A stretch of DNA of 64,000 nt from an uncultured Candidatus Saccharibacteria bacterium (GTDB lineage: Bacteria; Patescibacteriota; Minisyncoccia; Phycocordibacterales; UBA6899). The notes beneath the pieces are model-generated. The model was not told where the DNA came from. It searched no databases and saw only the letters and a program-made list of their open reading frames with translations. The position numbers and the translations under genes were made by a program. The DNA lies in assembly GCA_964469335.1 (NCBI GenBank), contig CAYXYK010000004.1, positions 23,230-87,229 on the forward strand, read 5' to 3'. Of this stretch, positions 4,481-63,875 are shown piece by piece (positions within the stretch are counted from its first letter, which is position 1; the number at the start of each line of letters is the position of its first letter).

Positions 4481-4499
4481 ACGGAGTTCGCCCTGAATC

Positions 4500-4582
4500 G
4501 CGAGCTACTTCGTTGGCCTCGTCACGAAATAACTCAACGTACCATTAAGTACATCTCGTCATTTCGTTCCTTTCCGCCTCAT
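4500..4582 (+). repeat. novel intergenic repeat element, degenerate copy E8
   Basis: ctacttcgttggcctcgtcacg...tcAACGTACcattaaGTACATctcgtcatttcgttcctttccgcctc aligns to the core of copies E1-E7 (GTAC-N6-GTAC hairpin + T/C-rich tail). Lies directly 3' of the MBL gene. Confidence 0.5.
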
Positions 4583-4632
4583 ATCTCATCGATTAATGAC
4601 AAACTCCTTGAGATGCTTACTACCATTTCGTT

Positions 4633-6295: not shown

Positions 6296-6406
6296 CCAAA
6301 TTTTCCCATCTACATCGTTGTGGGTCCCAAGCAACGCAGTCGACGTACCACAGAGTACGCCTCTTTTCTCGCTTTTCCCACGCCTCGTATCTGAAAAAAT
6401 TTGGAG
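6296..6406 (+). repeat. novel intergenic repeat element, copy E1
   Basis: Terminal inverted repeat ccaaatttt / aaaatttgg. Core CCCATCTAC..GTTGTGGGTCCCAAG..gacGTACcacagaGTACgcc..CTTTTCCCACGCC. Immediately 3' of the pilin gene. Confidence 0.7.
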
Positions 6407-6464
6407 CGCCTTCAATTCAGGATGGCTTCACGGAAAGGGGGAAATAGGGTAATGTAAGCTTTCA

Positions 6465-7916
6465 ATGGCACAAGGAGAGGTAATTCTGCGCTTCGAAGAC
6501 GTCAGTTTCGAGCATGGCCCGAGGAAACCCATATTGAATGAGGTGAATTTCACTGTACGGCGTGGTGCGAAAGTCACCCTGATGGGACAAAATGGCGCCG
6601 GGAAATCGACGCTGTTCTCCCTTATCACCAAGACCGCAAAGCCTGAATCGGGCAAGATCCATATCGGCGCGGGAATCTCGATCGCGCTCTCGCATCAGGT
6701 GATCCCGAAGGACAGCCTCGATCTCACGGTACGCGCATTCTTCGAGAAGTGTTTTGATAAGAAGGTCTATGATATAGACCCGAAGATTGACGCGGTACTT
6801 GAAGTAGTGAACCTTCACGCGCCACACGATCGCATCGTCCGTTCATTCTCTGGCGGCCAGCAGGCGAGACTTCTTCTTGCTTCTGCGCTGATCCAGGATC
6901 CGGACCTTCTTCTTCTTGATGAGCCGACCAACAATCTCGACAAAGCCGGCATCGCACATCTTACTGATTTCCTCCAGAACTACCCGAAGACGGTGATCGT
7001 CATCTCTCACGATGCCGACTTCCTCAACTCATTCACCGAAGGAGTGCTCTATCTCGACGTGCGTACACAGAAAATGGAACAGTATGTCGGTAACTATACC
7101 GATGTGGTCAAGGACATTTCCGCCCGTATCGAGAAGGAGAATCGCGCGAATGCTCTCCTCCAGAAAGAGATCCAGCGCAACAAGGATCAGGCCAATGTGT
7201 TCTCCCACAAGGGAGGTAACATGCGTGCACTCGCGAAGCGTATGCGCGAGAAGGCAGCCGACATGGAAGAAGAGGTCGTCGAAGTGCGAAAAGAGGATAA
7301 GACAATCCGCCCGTTCGTCATTCCCGCCCAGACCGATTTCATCGGGAACGCTCTCACCATCGAGTCACTCACCGTCATCAAGAATCATAAGCCGACAGAA
7401 AAGAAAGTCCGCATCGAGCTCCGCAAGAAGCAACATCTCCTCCTTCAGGGTCCGAACGGGATAGGAAAGTCGACACTGCTTGAATCGCTCGCCAACGGCA
7501 CCGCAAAGGGCGCGAAGATCGCCGAAGGTGTGCGTGTCGGCTACTATCGTCAGGATTTCTCCACACTTAACTTCGAAGATACCGTCTATCAGTCACTCGC
7601 GGGCATCATGGTGAAAGTTGACGAAGAGAAACTTCGCTCAGTTGCGGCAAGCTTCCTCATCACCAAAGAACTCATCTATGCCAAAATTGGCAGTCTCTCG
7701 GAAGGACAGAAGGGATTGGTCGCATTCGCACGCCTCGTACTCGAAGTGCCGGGACTCCTCATTCTCGATGAGCCGACCAACCACATCAATTTCCGCCATC
7801 TTCCTGCGATCGCGAAGGCGTTAGACCAGTACGAGGGGGCGATGATTCTCGTCTCGCACGTGCCGGAGTTCGTGAAGCAGATTCGGATAGACGACATTCT
7901 CGACCTCGAGAAATAG
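6465..7916 (+). CDS. ABC-F family ATPase (two tandem ABC domains, no TM domain)
   Basis: Domain 1: GQNGAGKST, LSGGQQARL, LLLDEPTNNLD. Domain 2: GPNGIGKST, LSEGQKGL, LILDEPTNHIN. Confidence 0.9.
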   Translation: MAQGEVILRFEDVSFEHGPRKPILNEVNFTVRRGAKVTLMGQNGAGKSTLFSLITKTAKPESGKIHIGAGISIALSHQVIPKDSLDLTVRAFFEKCFDKKVYDIDPKIDAVLEVVNLHAPHDRIVRSFSGGQQARLLLASALIQDPDLLLLDEPTNNLDKAGIAHLTDFLQNYPKTVIVISHDADFLNSFTEGVLYLDVRTQKMEQYVGNYTDVVKDISARIEKENRANALLQKEIQRNKDQANVFSHKGGNMRALAKRMREKAADMEEEVVEVRKEDKTIRPFVIPAQTDFIGNALTIESLTVIKNHKPTEKKVRIELRKKQHLLLQGPNGIGKSTLLESLANGTAKGAKIAEGVRVGYYRQDFSTLNFEDTVYQSLAGIMVKVDEEKLRSVAASFLITKELIYAKIGSLSEGQKGLVAFARLVLEVPGLLILDEPTNHINFRHLPAIAKALDQYEGAMILVSHVPEFVKQIRIDDILDLEK

Positions 7917-7923
7917 AAAGAAT

Positions 7924-8907
7924 CTATTTTTTAGGGATGAACTTTATGCTCATGAGTAGCTCCTTGATCCGCGAGGTACTGTATTTGAGGTTCGTATCCG
8001 AAAGAGTCCAAATGAGACCTCCTTTTACAAAGTAGTAGTACGTTGCATCTGTGTCCTTGAGGACATGAACAGTTAGTCCGTTTATTTTCTCTCCCGAAGT
8101 ACCCTCAGTCAGTTGGGCCATCCAGTCATCAATCGTGAACTGCTTCGGAGGGAATGCTGCTTCAAGCTCAACATTGCTGCCGCTGTAACCCATGAGGTTG
8201 TATATTCGCAATTTTATGCCTAAGCTCGTGTCGTGCTCAATGACGAGAGTATTTTTCCCAGAGTACTCAAGCGAAAATCCCCACTTCTCGTTTTTGTAAA
8301 CTCTCCGTGCTTGCTGTTCTTTTATGATCGCAGTAATTTCTTCTGAAGAGTGCTTTGTAAAAAAAGTCATATTTGAGACCATCTCCTCTGCAGTGTATGC
8401 CTCTGGTTGAGGTCCCTCTGCGATGCTGTACTCGAACTCATTTTGTAAAATAAAAACTGTTTTCCAACCGTCAGCATTAATTGCTATAAGTGTGGGTACT
8501 GCGCCATTTAAATTTATAGACGTAGAGAACCCTTGCTCCTCAAGATCCTTTTTTAGCTCATCAAGTGAAAAATAACTCGAAGTAGCAAAATCACCCTCAA
8601 GACGATTATATATGCTAGGTTCTTTGTATTTTGACTCTTTATCGTAAGGTCCAACAAAGACATGCTCGGGTGATAGTGATTCAGTCACGATTGGGTCGGC
8701 ATACTGAAGCTCGAACCCGAAATCTTCGTTTCGCCAGACGCTCGTCGTTGCGGCTGTTTTCGGTGCACCTACTGCGGGTTGCCCAGCAGTGTGCGTGTTC
8801 ATATTCGGAGAAGTCCCTTTCGTGTTTAGATAGAACACTCCGCATGCCATGACGAGGAACAGTGTGAAAGTCACAACTATCCACATCGTTATTTTTTCAA
8901 ATTTCAT
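7924..8907 (-). CDS. hypothetical membrane-anchored/secreted protein (327 aa), AT-rich gene
   Basis: Start chosen at MKFEKITMWIVVTFTLFLVMA (N-terminal TM/signal). The longer ORF to 9525 would overlap the helicase gene. Local GC is visibly lower than flanking genes. Confidence 0.6.
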   Translation of the reverse strand: MKFEKITMWIVVTFTLFLVMACGVFYLNTKGTSPNMNTHTAGQPAVGAPKTAATTSVWRNEDFGFELQYADPIVTESLSPEHVFVGPYDKESKYKEPSIYNRLEGDFATSSYFSLDELKKDLEEQGFSTSINLNGAVPTLIAINADGWKTVFILQNEFEYSIAEGPQPEAYTAEEMVSNMTFFTKHSSEEITAIIKEQQARRVYKNEKWGFSLEYSGKNTLVIEHDTSLGIKLRIYNLMGYSGSNVELEAAFPPKQFTIDDWMAQLTEGTSGEKINGLTVHVLKDTDATYYYFVKGGLIWTLSDTNLKYSTSRIKELLMSIKFIPKK

Positions 8908-11105: not shown

Positions 11106-11228
11106 AACAACCAAATTAATCCCATCTGCGACGTTGCGGGGCCCAAGTGTCTCAGTCAACGTACCTCGAAGTACGTCTCCCTCGTCACTTTTCCCGCGCC
11201 TTGCATATGGGCCAATTTGATTGTTCTA
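11103..11228 (+). repeat. novel intergenic repeat element, copy E2 (most complete)
   Basis: 15-bp terminal inverted repeat tagaacaaccaaatt / aatttgattgttcta. Core CCCATCTGCG..GTTGCGGGGCCCAAG..aACGTACctcgaaGTACGTc..CTTTTCCCGCGCC. Confidence 0.75.
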
Positions 11229-11285: not shown

Positions 11286-12332
11286 ATGGACATCGTCTTT
11301 TCATTTCTCGGTCTCTATTTTCTGCTCAAGTTGACGGACCACTTTCTTGCCGCAAAAGGGTATCACGGCGAAGTGAGTGATCACTTCGATGGAAACATCT
11401 TCTATAGTTATGGTCTCACTCCCGAGACCCGCATTGTCGATCATAGCAGAGTGAAGATGTTCAAATGGCTATTCTCGCGTAAACGCTACAGCTGGAGATG
11501 GCGTGATGTCGGGACTACGACCAAACCTGCCGAGCGTGTGGAGGGGGCGGCGATGGTCGTCACTTTCATCAATCATTCGACGCTCTTGATTCAGACCGAA
11601 GGGAAGAATATCCTCACAGACCCCGTATGGTCAAAGCGCGTGAGCCCCTTCTCGTTCATCGGGCCAAAGCGTTTCCAAGATCCCGGAGTATTGTTCGAAG
11701 ATCTCCCTCCGATCGATATCGTCCTCATTTCGCATAACCACTACGATCATATGGACCTCGCCACGCTCCGGAAGATCACCAAAAAATGGGATCCGCCGAT
11801 CATTGCGGGGCTCGGCAACAAGCAGTACCTCACGGAGAAAGGATTCACCAATGTCACCGAGCTCGATTGGTGGGAGGATTTCACATTCGGAGAATCGCTC
11901 CGTATCGTCTGTGCGCCCGGACAACATTTCTCCTCTCGTGCGCTCTCGGATCGGGACAATACGCTTTGGTGCGGATACGTCATTGAGACGCCTCACGGTG
12001 ATAGCTTCTTTGCGGGAGATACCGGCTACGGTGAATTCGTGAAGCGTATCCAAGAAAGATACAAGGAATTCCGGCTCGCGATGCTTCCCATCGGTGCGTT
12101 CCGCCCGCAGTGGTTCATGGGTCCGGTCCATATCTCGCCTGAACAAGCAGTGCAGATCTACGATGAGCTCAAGGTGCGAACTGCGATAGGGATACACCAT
12201 AGCACCTTCCATCTTGCTGATGACGGTCAGGATGAGCCGAAGGAGATCATCGATGCGGAAAAAGCGAAGCGCAGCGACAATGTGTTGAATTTCATTGTGC
12301 CGAAGAACGGCGAGATGTTCAGTATCGACTAG
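11286..12332 (+). CDS. MBL-fold metallo-hydrolase (NAPE-PLD-like family) with N-terminal TM segment
   Basis: LISHNHYDHMD zinc-binding motif with later PIGAF/H residues. Start may be an internal ATG. Confidence 0.75.
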   Translation: MDIVFSFLGLYFLLKLTDHFLAAKGYHGEVSDHFDGNIFYSYGLTPETRIVDHSRVKMFKWLFSRKRYSWRWRDVGTTTKPAERVEGAAMVVTFINHSTLLIQTEGKNILTDPVWSKRVSPFSFIGPKRFQDPGVLFEDLPPIDIVLISHNHYDHMDLATLRKITKKWDPPIIAGLGNKQYLTEKGFTNVTELDWWEDFTFGESLRIVCAPGQHFSSRALSDRDNTLWCGYVIETPHGDSFFAGDTGYGEFVKRIQERYKEFRLAMLPIGAFRPQWFMGPVHISPEQAVQIYDELKVRTAIGIHHSTFHLADDGQDEPKEIIDAEKAKRSDNVLNFIVPKNGEMFSID

Positions 12333-14483: not shown

Positions 14484-14606
14484 AGGAACTTTCAAATATC
14501 CCCATCTGCTGCGTTGTGGGTCCCAAGCAGTTCGGTCAATGTACGAGAAGTACATCTCCCTCACTGCTTTTCCCACGCCTAGCATCTGGAGAATATTTGG
14601 AAGTCC
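14484..14606 (+). repeat. novel intergenic repeat element, copy E3
   Basis: Flanks ggaactttcaaatat / gaatatttggaagtcc. Core CCCATCTGCTGC GTTGTGGGTCCCAAG..aATGTACgagaaGTACATc..CTTTTCCCACGCC. Hairpin 2 carries the compensatory C>T/G>A change. Confidence 0.7.
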
Positions 14607-14627
14607 CTAAATCCCATGATTATTCTA

Positions 14628-14655
14628 TTGTTTCGCAATGTAGCTTCGGTATAAT
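14628..14655 (+). promoter_or_regulatory. candidate sigma70-like promoter (TTGTTT-16nt-TATAAT)
   Basis: ttgttt cgcaatgtagcttcgg tataat, located upstream of the small Lys-rich ORF and metallopeptidase gene. Confidence 0.35.
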
Positions 14656-14685
14656 GGTAATCAATTAATAGTTGATCAATTCACT

Positions 14686-16365: not shown

Positions 16366-16393
16366 AAAATGATGGGCACCCCGAGGGGTGCCC
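16362..16393 (-). terminator. rho-independent terminator (minus strand) downstream of small CDS 16439..16600; may also stop rarA readthrough
   Basis: GGGCACCCC-ga-GGGGTGCCC perfect 9-bp stem. On the minus strand it is followed by TTTTTT. Confidence 0.7.
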
Positions 16394-16438
16394 ATGCTGT
16401 TCACTGACTATCCGTCAGCGGACGACGCGGTGCGTGCG

Positions 16439-16600: not shown

Positions 16601-16766
16601 GCCGTTCTCCTTGGAGTTGGCGGTTTGAGGAACACGGGCGGTCCGATGACCTTACCCATATGTAGTCTAGCAAAAACTCTTTTGCTGGCAAGTACTTTCG
16701 TGTATATCAGGAGGGTGTGGATAACTTATTTGCGGAGTTCTCCGAGAGGAGTATAGTGAGTGAGTT

Positions 16767-16796
16767 GGAGGGACCTTGGTCCCTCCTCTTTTATTG
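16767..16796 (+). terminator. rho-independent terminator-like hairpin (plus strand)
   Basis: GGAGGGACC-tt-GGTCCCTCC followed by tcttttatt. No obvious plus-strand CDS upstream. Confidence 0.5.
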
Positions 16797-17008
16797 CCTC
16801 GACAACGATGCATAAGAGATCTCGGACCAGGTTCCCTCCACTTTAATGGTTAATCACAATTCTATGGTCAAGGCTAAAGAAGTGGACTACGAAGGAATCG
16901 CAATCATCGTCACTACGTGTTCGATGTTCGCACTCTGGAGTGTCGTCTCAGTAGCAGTCCCCACGCTTGGGGTACTCGCGTAGACCCAGAAGGGATTACA
17001 CCAAATAC

Positions 17009-17041
17009 GGCGCCTAGCTAAATGCAGGCGCCTTTTTGTTT
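17009..17041 (+). terminator. rho-independent terminator (plus strand) ending an apparently non-coding ~200 nt region
   Basis: GGCGCCT-agctaaatgc-AGGCGCC followed by tttttgttt. Confidence 0.55.
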
Positions 17042-17049
17042 CTCGGCTT

Positions 17050-17135
17050 TCAGAGCATGCGGTCTTCTGCGTTGTGGGTCCCAAGTCCTAGTTCACCGTA
17101 CGAATAGTATGGCTCACTTCGCCACTCGCCTTACA
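17050..17135 (+). repeat. novel intergenic repeat element, degenerate copy E4
   Basis: ..CTTCTGC GTTGTGGGTCCCAAG..caCCGTACgaataGTATGGc..cacttcgccactcgcc. Hairpin 2 retains pairing only through a G.U wobble. Confidence 0.55.
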
Positions 17136-17353
17136 GGCGCTGTACACCTTTTGGATTTCTCGGAAAAAATCTCAAAAGGTCTTGCACGGTGGCCCCATAA
17201 GAATGGGTTCCCAATAGCCACCGCTCACCCACGCCTTGAATCCCATCAATTTCAGAAAGCCGATTTCCCAGCATCCTTGTCACAATTCGGGAAATGGTGG
17301 GTTATCCAAGGTAGCGCTCGAATTAGCCCAAGAAATAGGGTACCATTTAGGGA

Positions 17354-17908
17354 ATGGAGGTTTCCAAAGACACTCTGGACGAGATCATACGGCGGGCAAA
17401 GGAGGGCGACAGTAAGGCCTTTGACATGCTCTATAGTACCTATTTTACCCCACTGTACCGCTATGTGTTCATTCGACTCAAGACTCGGGAAGATGCTGAG
17501 GATGTGGTTCAGGACACCTTTCTGAAGGCATATCAAGCGCTTCCGCGATACGAGCACACGAGGGATAGCATGCTTCCATACCTGTTCACCATTGCCCGCA
17601 ATCTTTTGATCAATCACACCAAGAAAAAACGCCCGGACACGATGGCAGGGGAGGATATCGAGCGACATGCCGGCGACGAGAAGACCTCGGCGATGGCAGA
17701 GGGGAGAGAACTTCGAGAGGAGCTGCTCACTGCGATGGAAGTCTTGTCGGATACGGAACGCGAGGTGATAGAGCTGAAATTCTTCGGAGAACAGACCTAT
17801 GCTGAGATCGCGGAAGTGCTCGATAAGCGGGAAGATGCGATCAGACAGCACGTCGCAAGGGCGATGAAGAAGATGAGGGAGGTACTCAGTGAGCGTGAGG
17901 CAGTATAG
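17354..17908 (+). CDS. RNA polymerase sigma-70 family ECF sigma factor
   Basis: Region 2 VQDTFLKAYQALPRYE. Region 4 EREVIELKFFGEQTYAEIAEVLDKREDAIRQHVARAMKKM. Confidence 0.9.
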   Translation: MEVSKDTLDEIIRRAKEGDSKAFDMLYSTYFTPLYRYVFIRLKTREDAEDVVQDTFLKAYQALPRYEHTRDSMLPYLFTIARNLLINHTKKKRPDTMAGEDIERHAGDEKTSAMAEGRELREELLTAMEVLSDTEREVIELKFFGEQTYAEIAEVLDKREDAIRQHVARAMKKMREVLSEREAV

Positions 17909-18623: not shown

Positions 18624-19374
18624 CAATAAGGCCGGAAAAGTACTCCTTCTCTCATTCATCGGACTGGGGCTGTTGGTTATGCCCGAAGTCGGTTTCGCGG
18701 CAGGGAAGACTTCAGCAGCCAACCGCACGAAAGTGGATTTCTGCTCCGCTGTCGATGCGTTCGCTGAAAAACTGAGTAAAGACATGACCGAAAGTACCGC
18801 ACGTTTCGGAGCGAAGGAGACCGATCGCCAAACACAACTCGACCTGAAGATCGCGCAACAGGAAGCTGAGCGACAGAATAGCCGTTTCGCTTGGGACAAT
18901 TCACGAGACAAGGTCTATACCGACCTCTCTGCTCGTGCTTCCACTGACGCACAGAAGGCGGCAATAAAAAAGTTCAGAGCCGCGGTCGACCTCGCGGTCG
19001 AGGCACGAAGGAAGAGCGTTGACAAGGCGACCACCGACTTCAAATCCGGTGTCGACAAGGGGATCAGTTCTCGGAAGACAGCGGTCGAGAAGGCTACCCA
19101 GCTTTTCAAGGATTCGACCGACAAAGCACTCTCTGACGCGAAAGCAGACTGTACCAAAGGGGTGGCGTCGGCGGATGCCCGCGCTCGATACCTCACTGCG
19201 CTCGAAGCAGCACAACAACAGCTGAAGCAGTCACTCGCACAGATCAAGACGACTGATAACCTCCGCACGCTAGTGAGTACACGGCAAACTGCAATCGAGC
19301 AGGCGGCGAAGGATTTCAAGTCTGCGGTCACGAAGGCTGAGAATACACTCAAGCTCGCATTCCCTGACGCCTAA
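18604..19374 (+). CDS. secreted alpha-helical Ala/Lys-rich hypothetical protein
   Basis: Signal peptide (KVLLLSFIGLGLLVMPEVGFA), then repetitive helical K/A/D-rich sequence. Third gene of the sigma operon. Confidence 0.6.
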   Translation: MTRKRSNNKAGKVLLLSFIGLGLLVMPEVGFAAGKTSAANRTKVDFCSAVDAFAEKLSKDMTESTARFGAKETDRQTQLDLKIAQQEAERQNSRFAWDNSRDKVYTDLSARASTDAQKAAIKKFRAAVDLAVEARRKSVDKATTDFKSGVDKGISSRKTAVEKATQLFKDSTDKALSDAKADCTKGVASADARARYLTALEAAQQQLKQSLAQIKTTDNLRTLVSTRQTAIEQAAKDFKSAVTKAENTLKLAFPDA

Positions 19375-19423
19375 AAACCTCCGCAAGCGGCGAGCTTTGT
19401 CGTCGTAAGGTGAAACACTTATA

Positions 19424-19481
19424 CCCATGCGGCTCGGTCAACGTACAATAAGTACGTCTTCCTCGCCGCATTTCCCACTCC
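19424..19481 (+). repeat. novel intergenic repeat element, partial copy E5 (lacks hairpin 1)
   Basis: CCCATGCGGC TCGG TCAACGTACaataaGTACGTCTTCC TCGCCGCATTTCCCACTCC. Confidence 0.55.
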
Positions 19482-19560
19482 TAAAATCTCACTCACTTGT
19501 AGAGGTTTTTAATAGAAAGAAATTTTTGTAATAAAAGAGTTATTGTCGTATGCTCAGTAA

Positions 19561-22850: not shown

Positions 22851-24128
22851 TCACTTCTTGGCGCCGGCGGCGGCACCGGTCTGGAGCGTGCCGGTCGCAC
22901 GAACGGTGTCGGGCACGACACGCGACTTGAGGTAGGAGCCTTGCGGCCCACGGCACATCTTGACCTTGGCGCCGGATGCATCGGTGAATTCCTCCACCTT
23001 GCAGGCGACGCGCTCTTGCTCGATGCGCTGGGTCGGTGCTTCCATCTTCCAAGTCATGCCGGCGATGGTGCTCAGGATGCCGCTGACTTCGTCTCGGGTG
23101 GGACCCTTCGGAACTTCGACCAACTTGTACGCGCCCGGGAGCTCGCACGGGATGATCTGGACCTTGGTGACGATGCGGGACATCGCGGAGGACGCGCCGC
23201 CGCCGGCGTTGCCGCCGCCGTTGGTGCCTGCGACGCCGAGGGACATCGAGCTTGCTGCCGAAACGGTCGGAAGTGCCGTCGTGATGATGGACTGCGAACC
23301 GAACCGGCGGATCACCTTTTCACCTGCTTCGGTGAAGGTGCGCTCGATGTACATCAGCTGCTCCTTGGTCGTTTCGTCGAAGACTGGAGCGATCTCCATG
23401 TCCTCGCCGAGGTCGATCTTGGTATTGGTGAAAAAGCCGATGTGGGTACCGAGCACTCCCTTCCTGGTGACCGTCATGAGCGGGCCGCACGCGGTGCGCT
23501 CGGTCACGATCTGACTGGTGGTCACCACCGATGCGGGTGTCGGCATGAAGAGCGGCAACACCGAGACCTGCTTGTAGTTCGTGGTCGTTGTGGTGTTGGT
23601 CGTCGTCGAATTGCCGGCCCCGTTACCCGTCGCGTTTCCGCCTGCTGCATTGCCGCCAGCGGCGTTGCCTCCGGCCGCGTTTCCGCCTGCTGCATTGCCT
23701 CCGGCACCGCCGTTGGCGGTCGTTGCGTTGTTCAGGGTGGAAGTGAGTGCTTGACGCTGGTCCTGCGAGAGGCTCGCGATCAGCTTCTGTTGCTGTTCGG
23801 TCGAGAGCTTGTTCCAGTTGTCCGAGATGGCCTTGGCATCACCGCCGGTGGCGTTGCCGCCGTTTGCGAGTGCTGCTGCGATCGCCGCCGCGGCCGCCTT
23901 GGCTTCCGCTTCGGCTTTTGCTGCCGCGTCGGCGTCCGAGGAGGGGTTCGCATTGACCGTGTCGGTGACGGTGATCGGTTGACCACCGGGAGTCGGCGAC
24001 GGGCAGACGTACTTGCCGGCCTCGTTCAGGAGCGAGATGCTCCCGTCGGGGCATTTGGGCCACGCGTGCGCGCTGGCAGCGAAGCCGAGGCTGAGGATGG
24101 CGAAGGAAATGGCATTGAGCTTCTTCAT
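22851..24128 (-). CDS. secreted hypothetical protein with Ala-rich region and (AGGNA)n repeat
   Basis: Signal peptide MKKLNAISFAILSLGFAASAHA. GGNAAGGNAAGGNAAGGNAAGGNA tract. Lies in a GC-rich segment. Confidence 0.7.
   Translation of the reverse strand: MKKLNAISFAILSLGFAASAHAWPKCPDGSISLLNEAGKYVCPSPTPGGQPITVTDTVNANPSSDADAAAKAEAEAKAAAAAIAAALANGGNATGGDAKAISDNWNKLSTEQQQKLIASLSQDQRQALTSTLNNATTANGGAGGNAAGGNAAGGNAAGGNAAGGNATGNGAGNSTTTNTTTTTNYKQVSVLPLFMPTPASVVTTSQIVTERTACGPLMTVTRKGVLGTHIGFFTNTKIDLGEDMEIAPVFDETTKEQLMYIERTFTEAGEKVIRRFGSQSIITTALPTVSAASSMSLGVAGTNGGGNAGGGASSAMSRIVTKVQIIPCELPGAYKLVEVPKGPTRDEVSGILSTIAGMTWKMEAPTQRIEQERVACKVEEFTDASGAKVKMCRGPQGSYLKSRVVPDTVRATGTLQTGAAAGAKK
23631..23706 (-). 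repeat. 15-nt in-frame tandem repeat (about 5 units) encoding GGNAA repeats
   Basis: gcgtttccgcctgctgcattgccgccagcggcgttgcctccggccgcgtttccgcctgctgcattgcc. Confidence 0.6.
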
Positions 24129-24141
24129 GTTGTGGTACTCC

Positions 24142-25182
24142 TTACTTGAGGGTTGTTGATGCGAGAAGGTTGCTGTTGTTGTCGGGAACGGCCCCTTGCA
24201 AGAGGAACCGGTTGATGAAGCCCGAGACTTCGGCGTAGGCCGAACGTTCTCGGTCGGTCGTCGGCGGGGGGATCCCGCCTTGGTACTTCGCTTTCCAGAT
24301 CAGGATCGCGAGAGGTGTGACGTCGTGCTCTCCTCCGACGATGTGTTCCAGTTCCCGTTTGATGGGGAGGATGGTGTCGATGTCGGGTGTTGCGGACCGT
24401 ACGGACCAGTTGCCGCCCTCGGCGTGATACACGAAGCTGTAGACGAGACCGTGAGCGCGCACAGTATACTCGCGTGCACGTACCTCGCGTTTGTCTCGCC
24501 ACTTCGCCGTGACCGATTGCCACAGGGCATTGTCCTCGAATTGCATCAGCGCGAACTCTTCGCCCGCGACCACTGAGATGTGCTCGTATTCGTCGTGTAC
24601 GACCTTGTCCGAGAGCTGGCTCGCGACGTCGGTCGGAAGATCGCTCTTCACGAGGAATGTTTCCAGCGTGCAGTTCGTGCACGGCCGGTCGAGATCAGGG
24701 GTCGTTTCGAGAGAAGTCGTCTGCACCACTACTTGGGTGCGGATGATGCGCCTCTTCTTGGCTGGCTTGGTCGGGATCGGCGGCAGTGCCTTTGTGGCGC
24801 TGCTCTCTTGTACCGTGACCGGTCGCTTCGCCGAGTCGGCGATGTCCTTCTGGACGATCGCGATCGCTTCTGCGAGGGTTGCCTTGCCTTTTTCTGCTGC
24901 GACAACCTTTGGAGCAGTAGCGAGCGTTTCCGTGACGTTCACTCGCACATCCGCTTGGGGCGGAGGGAGGGGGACGTTGTAGGTCTCGCCGATGTACATC
25001 CAATAGAGCGGAGCCTTGATCTTCCTCTTGTTGGCGTTGATGATCTGGGCGGGGGTCGTGCCGGTCGCTTTCGCAACCCGCTCGACACTGTCGCCGCGTA
25101 TCGCGGTGTGCGTTTCTGCGTGTGCAGCCATGCCGAAAAGGCAGAGCGCAAGCGCAAGAAGAGCACGGATGATGATGGTCAT
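24142..25182 (-). CDS. LysM domain-containing secreted protein
   Basis: Signal peptide, then LysM (TAIRGDSVERVAKATGTTPAQIINANK). Unknown C-terminal domain. Co-oriented with the GGNAA protein. Confidence 0.7.
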   Translation of the reverse strand: MTIIIRALLALALCLFGMAAHAETHTAIRGDSVERVAKATGTTPAQIINANKRKIKAPLYWMYIGETYNVPLPPPQADVRVNVTETLATAPKVVAAEKGKATLAEAIAIVQKDIADSAKRPVTVQESSATKALPPIPTKPAKKRRIIRTQVVVQTTSLETTPDLDRPCTNCTLETFLVKSDLPTDVASQLSDKVVHDEYEHISVVAGEEFALMQFEDNALWQSVTAKWRDKREVRAREYTVRAHGLVYSFVYHAEGGNWSVRSATPDIDTILPIKRELEHIVGGEHDVTPLAILIWKAKYQGGIPPPTTDRERSAYAEVSGFINRFLLQGAVPDNNSNLLASTTLK

Positions 25183-60177: not shown

Positions 60178-60290
60178 GTCGCGCGGCGCACTTCGTCGTT
60201 GTGGGGCCCGAAGTTCTCAGTCACCGTACGAAGAGTACGGCTCCATCGAACTTCTTCCCATGCCTCGAATTGCATCCACTCGTCTCAATC
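60172..60290 (+). repeat. novel intergenic repeat element, copy E6
   Basis: Terminal inverted repeat gattgagtcg / cgtctcaatc. Core GTTGTGGGGCCCGAAG..cACCGTACgaagaGTACGGc..cttcttcccatgcc. Directly 3' of the pirin gene. Confidence 0.7.
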
Positions 60291-63754: not shown

Positions 63755-63871
63755 CCGCCCGAATATGTCCGCCTGCTTTGTTGCGGAGGCTCCGCAACTC
63801 GGTCGATGTACCATGAGTACATCTTCCTCGTTGCGCACTCCGCGCCTCGCATCCAGAACATATTTGGGCGG
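63755..63871 (+). repeat. novel intergenic repeat element, copy E7 (between pilC and a pilin gene)
   Basis: Terminal inverted repeat ccgcccgaatatgt / acatatttgggcgg. Hairpin 1 is a perfect GTTGCGGAG-gc-CTCCGCAAC. Hairpin 2 is cgATGTACcatgaGTACATc. Confidence 0.7.
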
Positions 63872-63875
63872 CTAT

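Follow-up and report, generated by a model that had tools for sequence, protein, structure and literature searches.

Apparent relics of a mobile, gene-polar hairpin repeat of Patescibacteria beside an intrinsic terminator

The stretch at positions 17009-17135 holds a canonical terminator followed by a decayed copy of a non-coding hairpin repeat of about 110 nt, one member of a family that recurs behind genes in Patescibacteria (CPR), a streamlined and mostly uncultured group whose gene-expression signals and mobile DNA are little known. We read this repeat as a mobile 3′-UTR hairpin of the REP/ERIC/Correia type with a probable function at the RNA level, and we put the probability of this reading at about 0.6, the descriptive part being held more firmly than the function. 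The family is new within a known class, that of the bacterial hairpin-forming intergenic repeats, and its unusual traits are a conserved interior with variable ends, a strong polarity and its sharing across CPR classes. It seems to be undescribed; Rfam 15 gave no match to the element at the gathering threshold or at E<=10 (16 kb and small slices searched), the family pattern found 0 matches in viral contigs, and full-text literature searches on structured RNAs, repeats, terminators, MITEs and REPINs of CPR/Patescibacteria turned up no account of it.

Repeat finding and alignment detected eight related stretches in the window, that is, in the whole 64 kb of DNA analysed. A strict IUPAC pattern derived from four of these copies was run on about 185,000 genomes, each from a different species, and matched 52 loci in 37 assemblies, where a rough estimate gives about nine chance matches. 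One locus, in Cellvibrio (L039), was rejected as a family member since the rest of the element is absent there and the covariance model described below did not recognise it, which leaves 51 loci in 36 assemblies. All of the lineage-labelled assemblies among these are Patescibacteria (Saccharibacteria, Paceibacterota, Kaiser-, Wolfe-, Nomura- and Lloydbacteria, and Parcubacteria), and a few others are 'bacterium' MAGs with no lineage label. The strict pattern matched most assemblies once or twice, so the family is patchy rather than universal in CPR. As the seed pattern fixed GTAC..AGTAC and some positions of the 3′ arm, the conservation seen there is partly by construction.

We then built a covariance model, R1, from five window copies and 50 external copies. 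Run over both strands of the 64-kb window with filters off, it returned exactly eight copies, all on the + strand, and the reverse strands of the same loci reached only 8-11 bits; over 371 kb of CPR loci it found 63 copies. Five of the window copies are intact and score 88-107 bits, all on the + strand. They lie at 6297-6410, after a pilin-like gene with an N_methyl Pfam match (100.8 bits), at 11113-11226, 7 nt downstream of the stop codon of a 130-codon ORF (106.7 bits), at 14493-14605 (103.5 bits), at 60178-60290, where the first base directly follows the stop codon of a pirin gene (87.9 bits), and at 63760-63872, after a T2SS-F/PilC-like gene, this last copy carrying the GGA/CCU/UCC variant (89.9 bits). 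The other three copies, E5 (49.5 bits), E8 (39.4 bits) and E4 (25.0 bits), are degenerate, and each of them spans model positions 1-114 on the + strand.

An RNAalifold analysis of an independent MAFFT alignment folded the element into one long hairpin, with compensatory changes at 13 of 22 pairs. From the base to the tip, the rod consists of a locus-specific outer stem, P1 (CAUCUGC/GCAUCUG, with a tandem U.C/C.U mismatch inside), P2 (GUUGYGGG/CCCRCGCC, with an almost invariant U.G), P3 (a helix of 5-7 bp that is free in sequence) and the apical helix P4 (CGUAC/GUACG), and its pyrimidine-pyrimidine mismatches are conserved. In the alignment of 63 sequences (A5, which was fitted to R1 and hence leans towards the R1 structure), 93% of the cells pair, compared to 75% in shuffles and 25-54% in slid controls; no shuffle out of 500 reached the observed pairing, and cells changed on both sides number 250, against 68 in the shuffles. 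When the rod is extended to 35 pairs, into the A/U-rich feet, 83% is paired as opposed to 64% in shuffles. Mutual information revealed an additional covarying pair between columns 45 and 72, within pyrimidine-rich loops (CG 22, AU 21, GC 8, UA 3), as well as a perfect three-way covariation, in which 47 sequences have GGG|NCCC|CCC and 10 have GGA|GCCU|UCC. A base triple 29/34/85 (C+.G-C / U.A-U) was recorded and not adopted, as its parallel third strand over a 1-nt linker is sterically implausible; it is also weakened by the fact that the GGA variant shares other signatures of a subfamily.

This fold differs from the one proposed in the first-pass annotation, which had described two local hairpins followed by a pyrimidine tail. 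Covariation supports a single long hairpin, and the proposed hairpin 1 pairs in 58.1% of the cells, compared to 57.7% in shuffles, and shows no covariation. The supposed separate CTTTTCCC tail is in fact the 3′ arm of P3/P2 (93% against 75% paired). The CCCATCTGC box, whose absence had been taken as a mark of decay in E4, varies across the family, and E4 has the variant GGTCTTCTGC at the same model positions. In 12 model-only copies, the changes in P4 are compensated (CGCAC/GUGCG, CGUAU/AUACG, CUUAC/GUAAG), and as GUAC itself thus changes in a compensated way in the weaker members, it is the pairing that is kept and not the GTAC sequence. In summary, covariation establishes the element as one long rod-like hairpin.

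We next looked at the position of the copies relative to genes. Of 70 copies, 39 have a co-oriented ORF of at least 150 aa that terminates at their 5′ foot; relative to the model start, its stop codon falls at -14 to +7 for 38 of them and at -34 for the other. The mirrored control, which counts antisense ORFs that end at the 3′ foot, gave 8 of 70, with scattered offsets. The 5′ foot stands 0-14 nt past the stop codon, which it sometimes overlaps, and the stop codon is at or inside the foot of the hairpin in 25 of 35 copies. The genes upstream encode 48 proteins of 39 unrelated families (SecA, GyrB, FtsW, MreB, ParB, S15, L25, TypA and pilins among them), and where two copies occupy opposite strands of one 8-kb locus, each is behind its own gene. 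The copies are hence polar with respect to the gene upstream.

The stem also runs past the unit of about 110 nt into flanks that are specific to the locus, and it often takes in the gene's final codons together with the stop codon. The complementarity of the flanks beyond the unit amounts to -9.0 kcal/mol, compared to -5.5 kcal/mol for mismatched partners (p=2.5e-10), and between two orthologous copies (L015 and L037) there is a compensated change from C-G to U-A inside the end of the coding sequence. The exceptions are about 10 of 63 copies that have no co-oriented gene ahead. In L010, for example, an intact copy in antisense orientation separates the zincin gene from mgsA, and five genomes share a conserved copy that lies upstream of the HU gene, again in antisense. 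The window copy E8 sits between convergent genes, MBL-fold (+) and PLD-like (-); an enrichment of convergent genes was dropped as support for termination, since the background is already 43% convergent by crude gene calls.

No canonical terminator-like site adjoins the intact copies, and neighbouring genes that lack a copy have one. The element does not itself provide a consistent U-tract: in the 17 nt past P1, the longest T run is at least 4 in 25 of 62 copies and at most 2 in 24 of 62, and in the window copies the stem is followed by TTT and then GG. Most genes on the + strand of the window have no copy, and the uneven spread of the copies implies that the element is not the general terminator of the organism.

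Within single genomes, two pairs of paralogous copies (L044/L052 and L009/L035) at unrelated loci show about 95% identity across about 110 nt; their similarity halts abruptly at both ends, and their outer stems differ in a compensated way. A discrete non-coding unit is thus found at unrelated loci, as in MITEs. Relatives in which the gene order of the sigma region is shared (L057, L058 and L059) differ in which copies they carry. The E5 site is occupied in the window and in L057 and empty in L058 and L059. The E4 site is likewise occupied in the window and in L057 and empty in L058, and no copy was detected in L059, where the region is rearranged. The copy at 14493 is present in the window and absent from all three relatives, which have a tiny Lys-rich ORF and an ordinary canonical terminator in its place. 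Since the paralogs are about 95% identical with sharp edges and the relatives differ in presence and absence, the element is mobile; it behaves as a discrete unit that is copied and pasted and that turns over. The window copies are moreover clustered, with none between 19.6 and 60.1 kb, a gap for which the calculated probability is about 0.003 for eight uniformly placed points.

No transposase-like ORF recurs among the 52 loci (about 435 kb of DNA), no RAYT gene was found in the approximately 435 kb of locus DNA examined, and no recombinase-like ORF family recurs in the loci, in a comparison that did not target integrases specifically. An autonomous parent, or an element split into halves 0.1-4 kb apart, did not appear in the examined loci, E4 itself excepted. 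The termini are A/T-rich, pair with each other and differ between copies, and there was no consistent direct duplication of a target site at the copies compared.

In the reading that we prefer, the copies would be transcribed as part of the mRNA of the upstream gene, and the rod of about 45 bp at the 3′ end of this mRNA could act as a barrier to 3′ exonucleases, as an RNase III site and/or as a weak or factor-assisted terminator. A trans-acting enzyme would spread the copies, and only as a 3′ UTR, behind the gene that it follows, would the element be tolerated or of use. A role at mRNA 3′ ends is suggested by the polarity, the adjacency to stop codons, the locus-specific extension of the stem and the lack of ordinary terminators beside intact copies. 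Against a role at the RNA level count the lack of a terminator-grade U-tract, the antisense copies and the distribution of wobble pairs, which does not favour the sense strand. At variable pairs, there are 55 G.U and 118 A.C, with no preference for the sense RNA, and among the fixed pairs, one is a U.G conserved in 58 sequences and one an A.C that is frequent, in 26. A wobble asymmetry, which we had considered as a sign of selection on the RNA, was thus not seen.

The near symmetry of G.U and A.C (113 and 144 when the two fixed pairs are included), which would be unexpected under selection on the sense RNA alone, agrees with the idea that the element is selfish DNA, a folded single strand recognised by a strand-specific transposase of the HUH/Y1 type or by a recombinase, the transcript being without function. 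We regard this as possible but unlikely. The position after stop codons and the orientation would then mark where insertion is possible or tolerated, and several observations agree with this: the sharp boundaries of same-genome paralogs, the gain and loss among relatives, the clustering of the window copies, the conserved mismatches (U.C, C.U, C.A), the patchiness of the family (36 assemblies in about 185,000 species genomes) and the intact copies found in antisense. However, the orientation tracks the upstream gene even for the opposed copies of the 8-kb locus, and the 5′ foot keeps within about 20 nt of the stop codon, whereas the 3′ side has no such tie. The locus-specific flanks, coding-sequence ends among them, pair with each other, which points to selection acting on the transcript in its folded form or else to a special mechanism of insertion, and neither a recurring transposase-like ORF in the 52 loci nor a split or autonomous version was found.

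A bolder proposal, which we consider doubtful, is that the element would be an RNA module specific to Patescibacteria, with a core read by a factor or by the terminating ribosome, and that the 97-nt motif nested in E4 (see below) would be a second undescribed structured RNA. If true, this would amount to a portable, sequence-specific 3′-end signal at the stop codon, spreading between genes and between CPR lineages.

We find it improbable that the element is a vertically inherited signal of Patescibacteria, recognised in the RNA by a factor and defining mRNA 3′ ends, with mobility as a secondary trait. According to this explanation, the core made of P2, 'CCC' and the internal loop would be bound by a protein particular to the lineage or adopt a tertiary structure, and would act through sequence-specific termination, through processing or through a coupling to translation termination. 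Such a signal would agree with a core that is conserved over several CPR classes while the stems covary, with the perfect GGG/GGA three-way covariation and the pair 45-72 inside conserved pyrimidine loops, with the stop codon at or inside the foot in 25 of 35 copies at tight offsets, and with orthologous housekeeping genes, such as FtsW, that carry a copy in distant genomes. On the other hand, strict matches come from 36 assemblies only, mostly one or two in each, and close relatives differ. The GGA variant shares other subfamily signatures and may stem from few events, the parallel base triple is sterically implausible, and most + strand genes of the window have no copy.

The mobile 3′-UTR hairpin that we favour can be compared to several known systems. 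The ERIC or IRU sequences of Enterobacteriaceae and Vibrio are imperfect palindromes of about 120 nt, intergenic and transcribed, which have a conserved central core and form long co-transcribed hairpins; they affect mRNA stability in an orientation-dependent manner and are present or absent at orthologous sites. Compared by description and not by sequence, the CPR element resembles them in its long imperfect hairpin, its conserved core and its presence or absence at orthologous sites, and we know of no sequence relationship between the two. It differs in being confined to Patescibacteria, in its polarity (about 10 bits in reverse, compared to about 100) and in its tie to the upstream stop codon. 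The Correia elements of Neisseria (NEMIS/CREE) are non-autonomous repeats of 100-150 nt that form long hairpins in mRNA, where they are RNase III targets or terminators; many copies are near gene ends, and they have conserved terminal inverted repeats of 26 bp and a TA target duplication. The CPR element has instead variable termini, a conserved interior and no definable target duplication. REP sequences are palindromes of 20-40 nt with a GTAG or CGTC tag, which form symmetric doublets (REPINs) and are mobilised in trans by RAYT transposases; they are extragenic at gene 3′ ends, have proposed roles in mRNA stabilisation and in termination, and persist within lineages. In contrast, the CPR element is an asymmetric single unit of about 110 nt that lacks the defining terminal GTAG/CGTC tag, and its core sequence is common to several classes, which is unusual for REPs.

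With intrinsic terminators, the element shares a hairpin placed just past the stop codon and co-oriented with the gene, and in many copies the 5′ foot is rich in A and the 3′ foot in U. It differs from them in having no consistent U-tract and a stem of about 45 bp with fixed mismatches; its conservation far exceeds what termination needs, and the same genome uses ordinary terminators elsewhere. The attC sites of integrons are similar in being imperfect palindromes directly after a co-oriented ORF, in a structure that partly outlasts the sequence, and in fixed unpaired bases that could mark one strand. The attC reading was nevertheless rejected, as the R''/R' cores (RYYYAAC/GTTRRRY) are absent, the core reading GTTGCGG/GTTGTGG, and the copies follow dispersed housekeeping genes with no cassette arrays. 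Likewise, the conserved terminal inverted repeats and target-site duplication of a MITE are lacking, the termini differing between copies, and readings as a promoter or as a structure sequestering the SD were set aside because the core motifs are absent and the downstream promoters are conserved outside the element.

For CPR, R1 provides a covariance model of a recurrent, covariation-supported and gene-polar element, which marks the 3′ ends of genes and offers a test object for mRNA termination or stabilisation. Small non-autonomous elements do turn over in these genomes of about 1 Mb, and in the annotation of MAGs they give rise to false ORFs and make gene ends indistinct. The copies that were flagged contribute little to this, being apparently ordinary relics beside an ordinary terminator.

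This terminator, at 17009-17041 on the + strand, lies 25 nt past the stop codon of a small hydrophobic ORF read from the sequence (16846-16983, +; 45 aa), whose transcript it would end. It consists of a GC stem of 7-8 bp with a loop of 8-10 nt (GGCGCCT-10 nt-AGGCGCC), followed immediately by the tract TTTTTGTTT; it is thus a GC-rich stem-loop with an immediate U-tract, downstream of a gene and co-oriented with it. The hairpin and the T-tract are kept in three relatives (L057, L058 and L060), and the 45-residue gene was also called on two Logan contigs of the same species (L001 and L002) and on L057, so that both the ORF and its terminator recur in relatives. Judged by its sequence, the site is a genuine, textbook intrinsic terminator, and termination here would be carried out by it and not by E4. 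Downstream of E4, the ECF sigma factor gene (17354-17908, +; Pfam Sigma70_r2, Sigma70_r4_2 and Sigma70_ECF) is the first of a three-gene operon ending at 19374, whose synteny is kept in L057-L059. The first-pass annotation was therefore right in placing a canonical terminator directly upstream of E4 and an ECF sigma gene, which starts at 17354, downstream of it. On L001, we also noted one strain SNP that breaks P2, which is uninformative.

The first-pass annotation had also correctly seen that E4, E5 and E8 belong to a genuine repeat family as degenerate members; the apical hairpin is retained by all eight window copies, and R1 gives E5 and E8 49.5 and 39.4 bits. The state of these copies is different from what was described. 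E5, said to keep only hairpin 2 and the tail, is a full-length copy at 19374-19510 on the + strand, directly after the stop codon of the operon (TAA, 19372-19374; R1 match 19382-19507, E=4.6e-14), and it keeps the outer stem AAAACCUC/GAGGUUUU, P1, P3 and P4. Its lesion is in P2, where the 5′ arm is mutated and does not pair in the model, and there is a 13-nt insertion at 19411-19423. E8, said to be similarly reduced, spans the full length at 4492-4604 (+; E=1.4e-10) with P1, P3 and P4, its P3 being intact and fully re-paired (CGAAAU/AUUUCG); P2 is lost, with 4 nt deleted and a 3′ arm that reads UUUCCG. Neither E5 nor E8 therefore has an intact P2 and 'CCC' strand, and in both, the 5′ feet and P1 are kept and the lesions are internal, in P2, contrary to a decay from the 5′ side. 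At the orthologous sites, the L057 counterpart of E5 has no 13-nt insertion and reaches 70.7 bits, E8 corresponds to an intact copy of 103 bits in L032 (MAG GFS_12994), and in L058 and L059 the place of E5 is an intergenic gap of only 40-50 nt. As the orthologues of E5 and E8 are more intact, the window copies are decaying rather than being held at a reduced form, which speaks against the GTAC hairpin plus tail as a functional minimum.

R1 matched E4 at 17051-17165 on the + strand (25.0 bits, E=1.1e-05; filters off, 64 kb, both strands), so that a repeat copy is indeed present here. Its apical GTAC hairpin does form with the help of wobble pairing, as had been noted, with one G.U in CCGUAC/GUAUGG (17096-17112). 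E4 does not, however, end at 17135 without terminal inverted repeats: the whole copy extends over 17044-17262 (+), interrupted by an insert of 97 nt, and still has its P2, its P4 and its terminal inverted repeat. The 5′ half, at 17044-17124, is the best-preserved part of the copy, interrupted by the insert and not truncated (profile positions 9-75 at 17059-17124, nhmmer 28.7 bits). It holds the foot CGGCUUUC, the 5′ arm of P1, the 5′ arm of P2 (GUUGUGGG), 'CCC' and the 5′ arm of P3, and then the apical P4 (CCGUAC-GAAUA-GUAUGG) and the 3′ internal loop. The 3′ half, at 17222-17262 (+), contains the 3′ arm of P2 (CCCACGCCUUG), the 3′ arm of P1 and the foot GAAAGCCG; it matches profile positions 78-110 at 17225-17257 (nhmmer 7.5 bits, E=4e-4 in 501 nt) and has its orthologue in the 3′ arm of the copy in L057. 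With 17125-17221 spliced out, the profile score of E4 rises from 28.7 to 45.3 bits, and in the fold of the spliced copy, the foot CGGCUUUC (17044-17051) pairs with GAAAGCCG (17255-17262), GUGGG pairs with CCCAC, and P2 and P4 form. The bases of P2 thus match in E4, with arms that are parted by the 97 nt.

Since the conserved P2 core is lost or disrupted in each of them, E4, E5 and E8 are probably relics, full-length copies with internal damage rather than 5′-eroded minimal units. The model of the first-pass annotation, in which two local hairpins and a pyrimidine-tail terminator would erode from the 5′ side to a minimal unit of GTAC hairpin and CTTTTCCC tail, placed in a stack after a canonical terminator so as to shield the sigma operon, is scarcely tenable: P4 is indeed kept in 8 of 8 window copies, E4 does follow a real terminator and the lesions of E5 and E8 do fall in the 5′ arm of P2, but hairpin 1 is without covariation, the 'tail' pairs with the 5′ arm, no U-tract follows P4, E4 is split with its terminal repeat kept, E5 and E8 still have P1 and their 5′ feet, and the orthologues are more intact.

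The insert in E4 (17125-17221, +), delimited as the co-linear gap between the two profile matches, is structured in its own right. It comprises two hairpins and folds alone at -30.7 kcal/mol, and it is missing from the compact E4 orthologue in L057. A sequence with 93% identity is present in the same arrangement in L060/L063, and the motif also occurs in other contexts (L061, L062 and L064), with some covariation in its second stem. It is hence a separate conserved structured motif, nested within the repeat.

E4, the decayed hairpin-repeat copy upstream of the ECF sigma gene (window 17044-17262), was found to contain a conserved motif of about 100 nt (window 17125-17221), which has no entry in Rfam. 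Further copies of this nested motif lie on the external loci L060 (3763-3837), L061 (about 398-520, -), L062 (about 6520-6642, -), L063 (about 11384-11496) and L064 (about 8502-8614, -). Its first hairpin is AU-rich and invariant (ACCUUUUGGAUUUYUCGGAAAAAAUCUCAAAAGGU), and its second, centred on CCCAUNAGAAUGGGUUCCC, has a closing stem that covaries (GGUGGC/GCCACC versus GGCUUGG/CCAAGCC). On L061 and L062 the motif is present without the hairpin repeat, and no sigma gene was found on the locus DNA around it.

The segment from TTGTCACA up to the sigma start codon (window 17277-17353) is strongly conserved at the equivalent site in all relatives (L057-L060). The TGTCACA upstream of the sigma gene resembles a -35 box found in certain ECF sigma promoters, so the promoter of the sigma gene is probably located 3′ of E4. 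Two further canonical terminator hairpins were found less than 700 nt from the terminator at window 17009-17041, one at 16760-16790, 3′ of a 122-codon ORF (GGAGGGACC-UU-GGUCCCUCC followed by a U-tract), and the other at 16372-16395 (-). Hence, ordinary terminators are freely used by this organism.

In the relatives, the site of copy 14493, an intact hairpin repeat, is occupied by a tiny Lys-rich ORF (MGKGDNRQQKDKKKPKKEKVK in L057) with a canonical terminator after it (L057 1133-1300, L058 793-1038 and L059 1837-2027), and the intact copy replaces this segment in the window (14484-14671). The orthologous site in MAG GFS_12994 holds a degenerate copy (40.6 bits with the covariance model R1) that differs greatly from an intact copy elsewhere in that MAG (L010, below). 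In a public contig of the window's own species (L001), a strain-level SNP at 137-139 (window 14573-14575, CCCAC to CCGAC) breaks one P2 pair; the copy is otherwise identical to that of the window (94.6 versus 103.5 bits).

P2 also takes part in a perfect three-way covariation between columns 29, 34 and 85 of the 63-sequence alignment A5. A G-C top pair is accompanied by C in the 'CCC' strand after P2 in 47 sequences and an A-U pair by U in 10, as in window copy 63760 (GGA at 63785-63787, then CCU/GCU), while a single case has AAA/CUU/UUU at these positions. This could reflect a tertiary contact or merely mark a subfamily.

A near-identical copy is common to five genomes (L045, 5655-5768, -; L006; L031; L033; L046). 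The L045 instance sits between the genes for RNase Y and HU in antisense orientation, and is therefore an exception to the rule that the repeat follows a co-oriented stop codon. In MAG GFS_12994, the space between the zincin gene and mgsA holds an intact copy in antisense orientation (L010 547-660, +, 92.6 bits). A separate repeat, with a 15-nt period and four overlapping copies (CCNGCNGCNTTNCCNCC-like, window 23626-23705), falls within long overlapping ORFs (22851-24149) in the highest-GC region (0.59).
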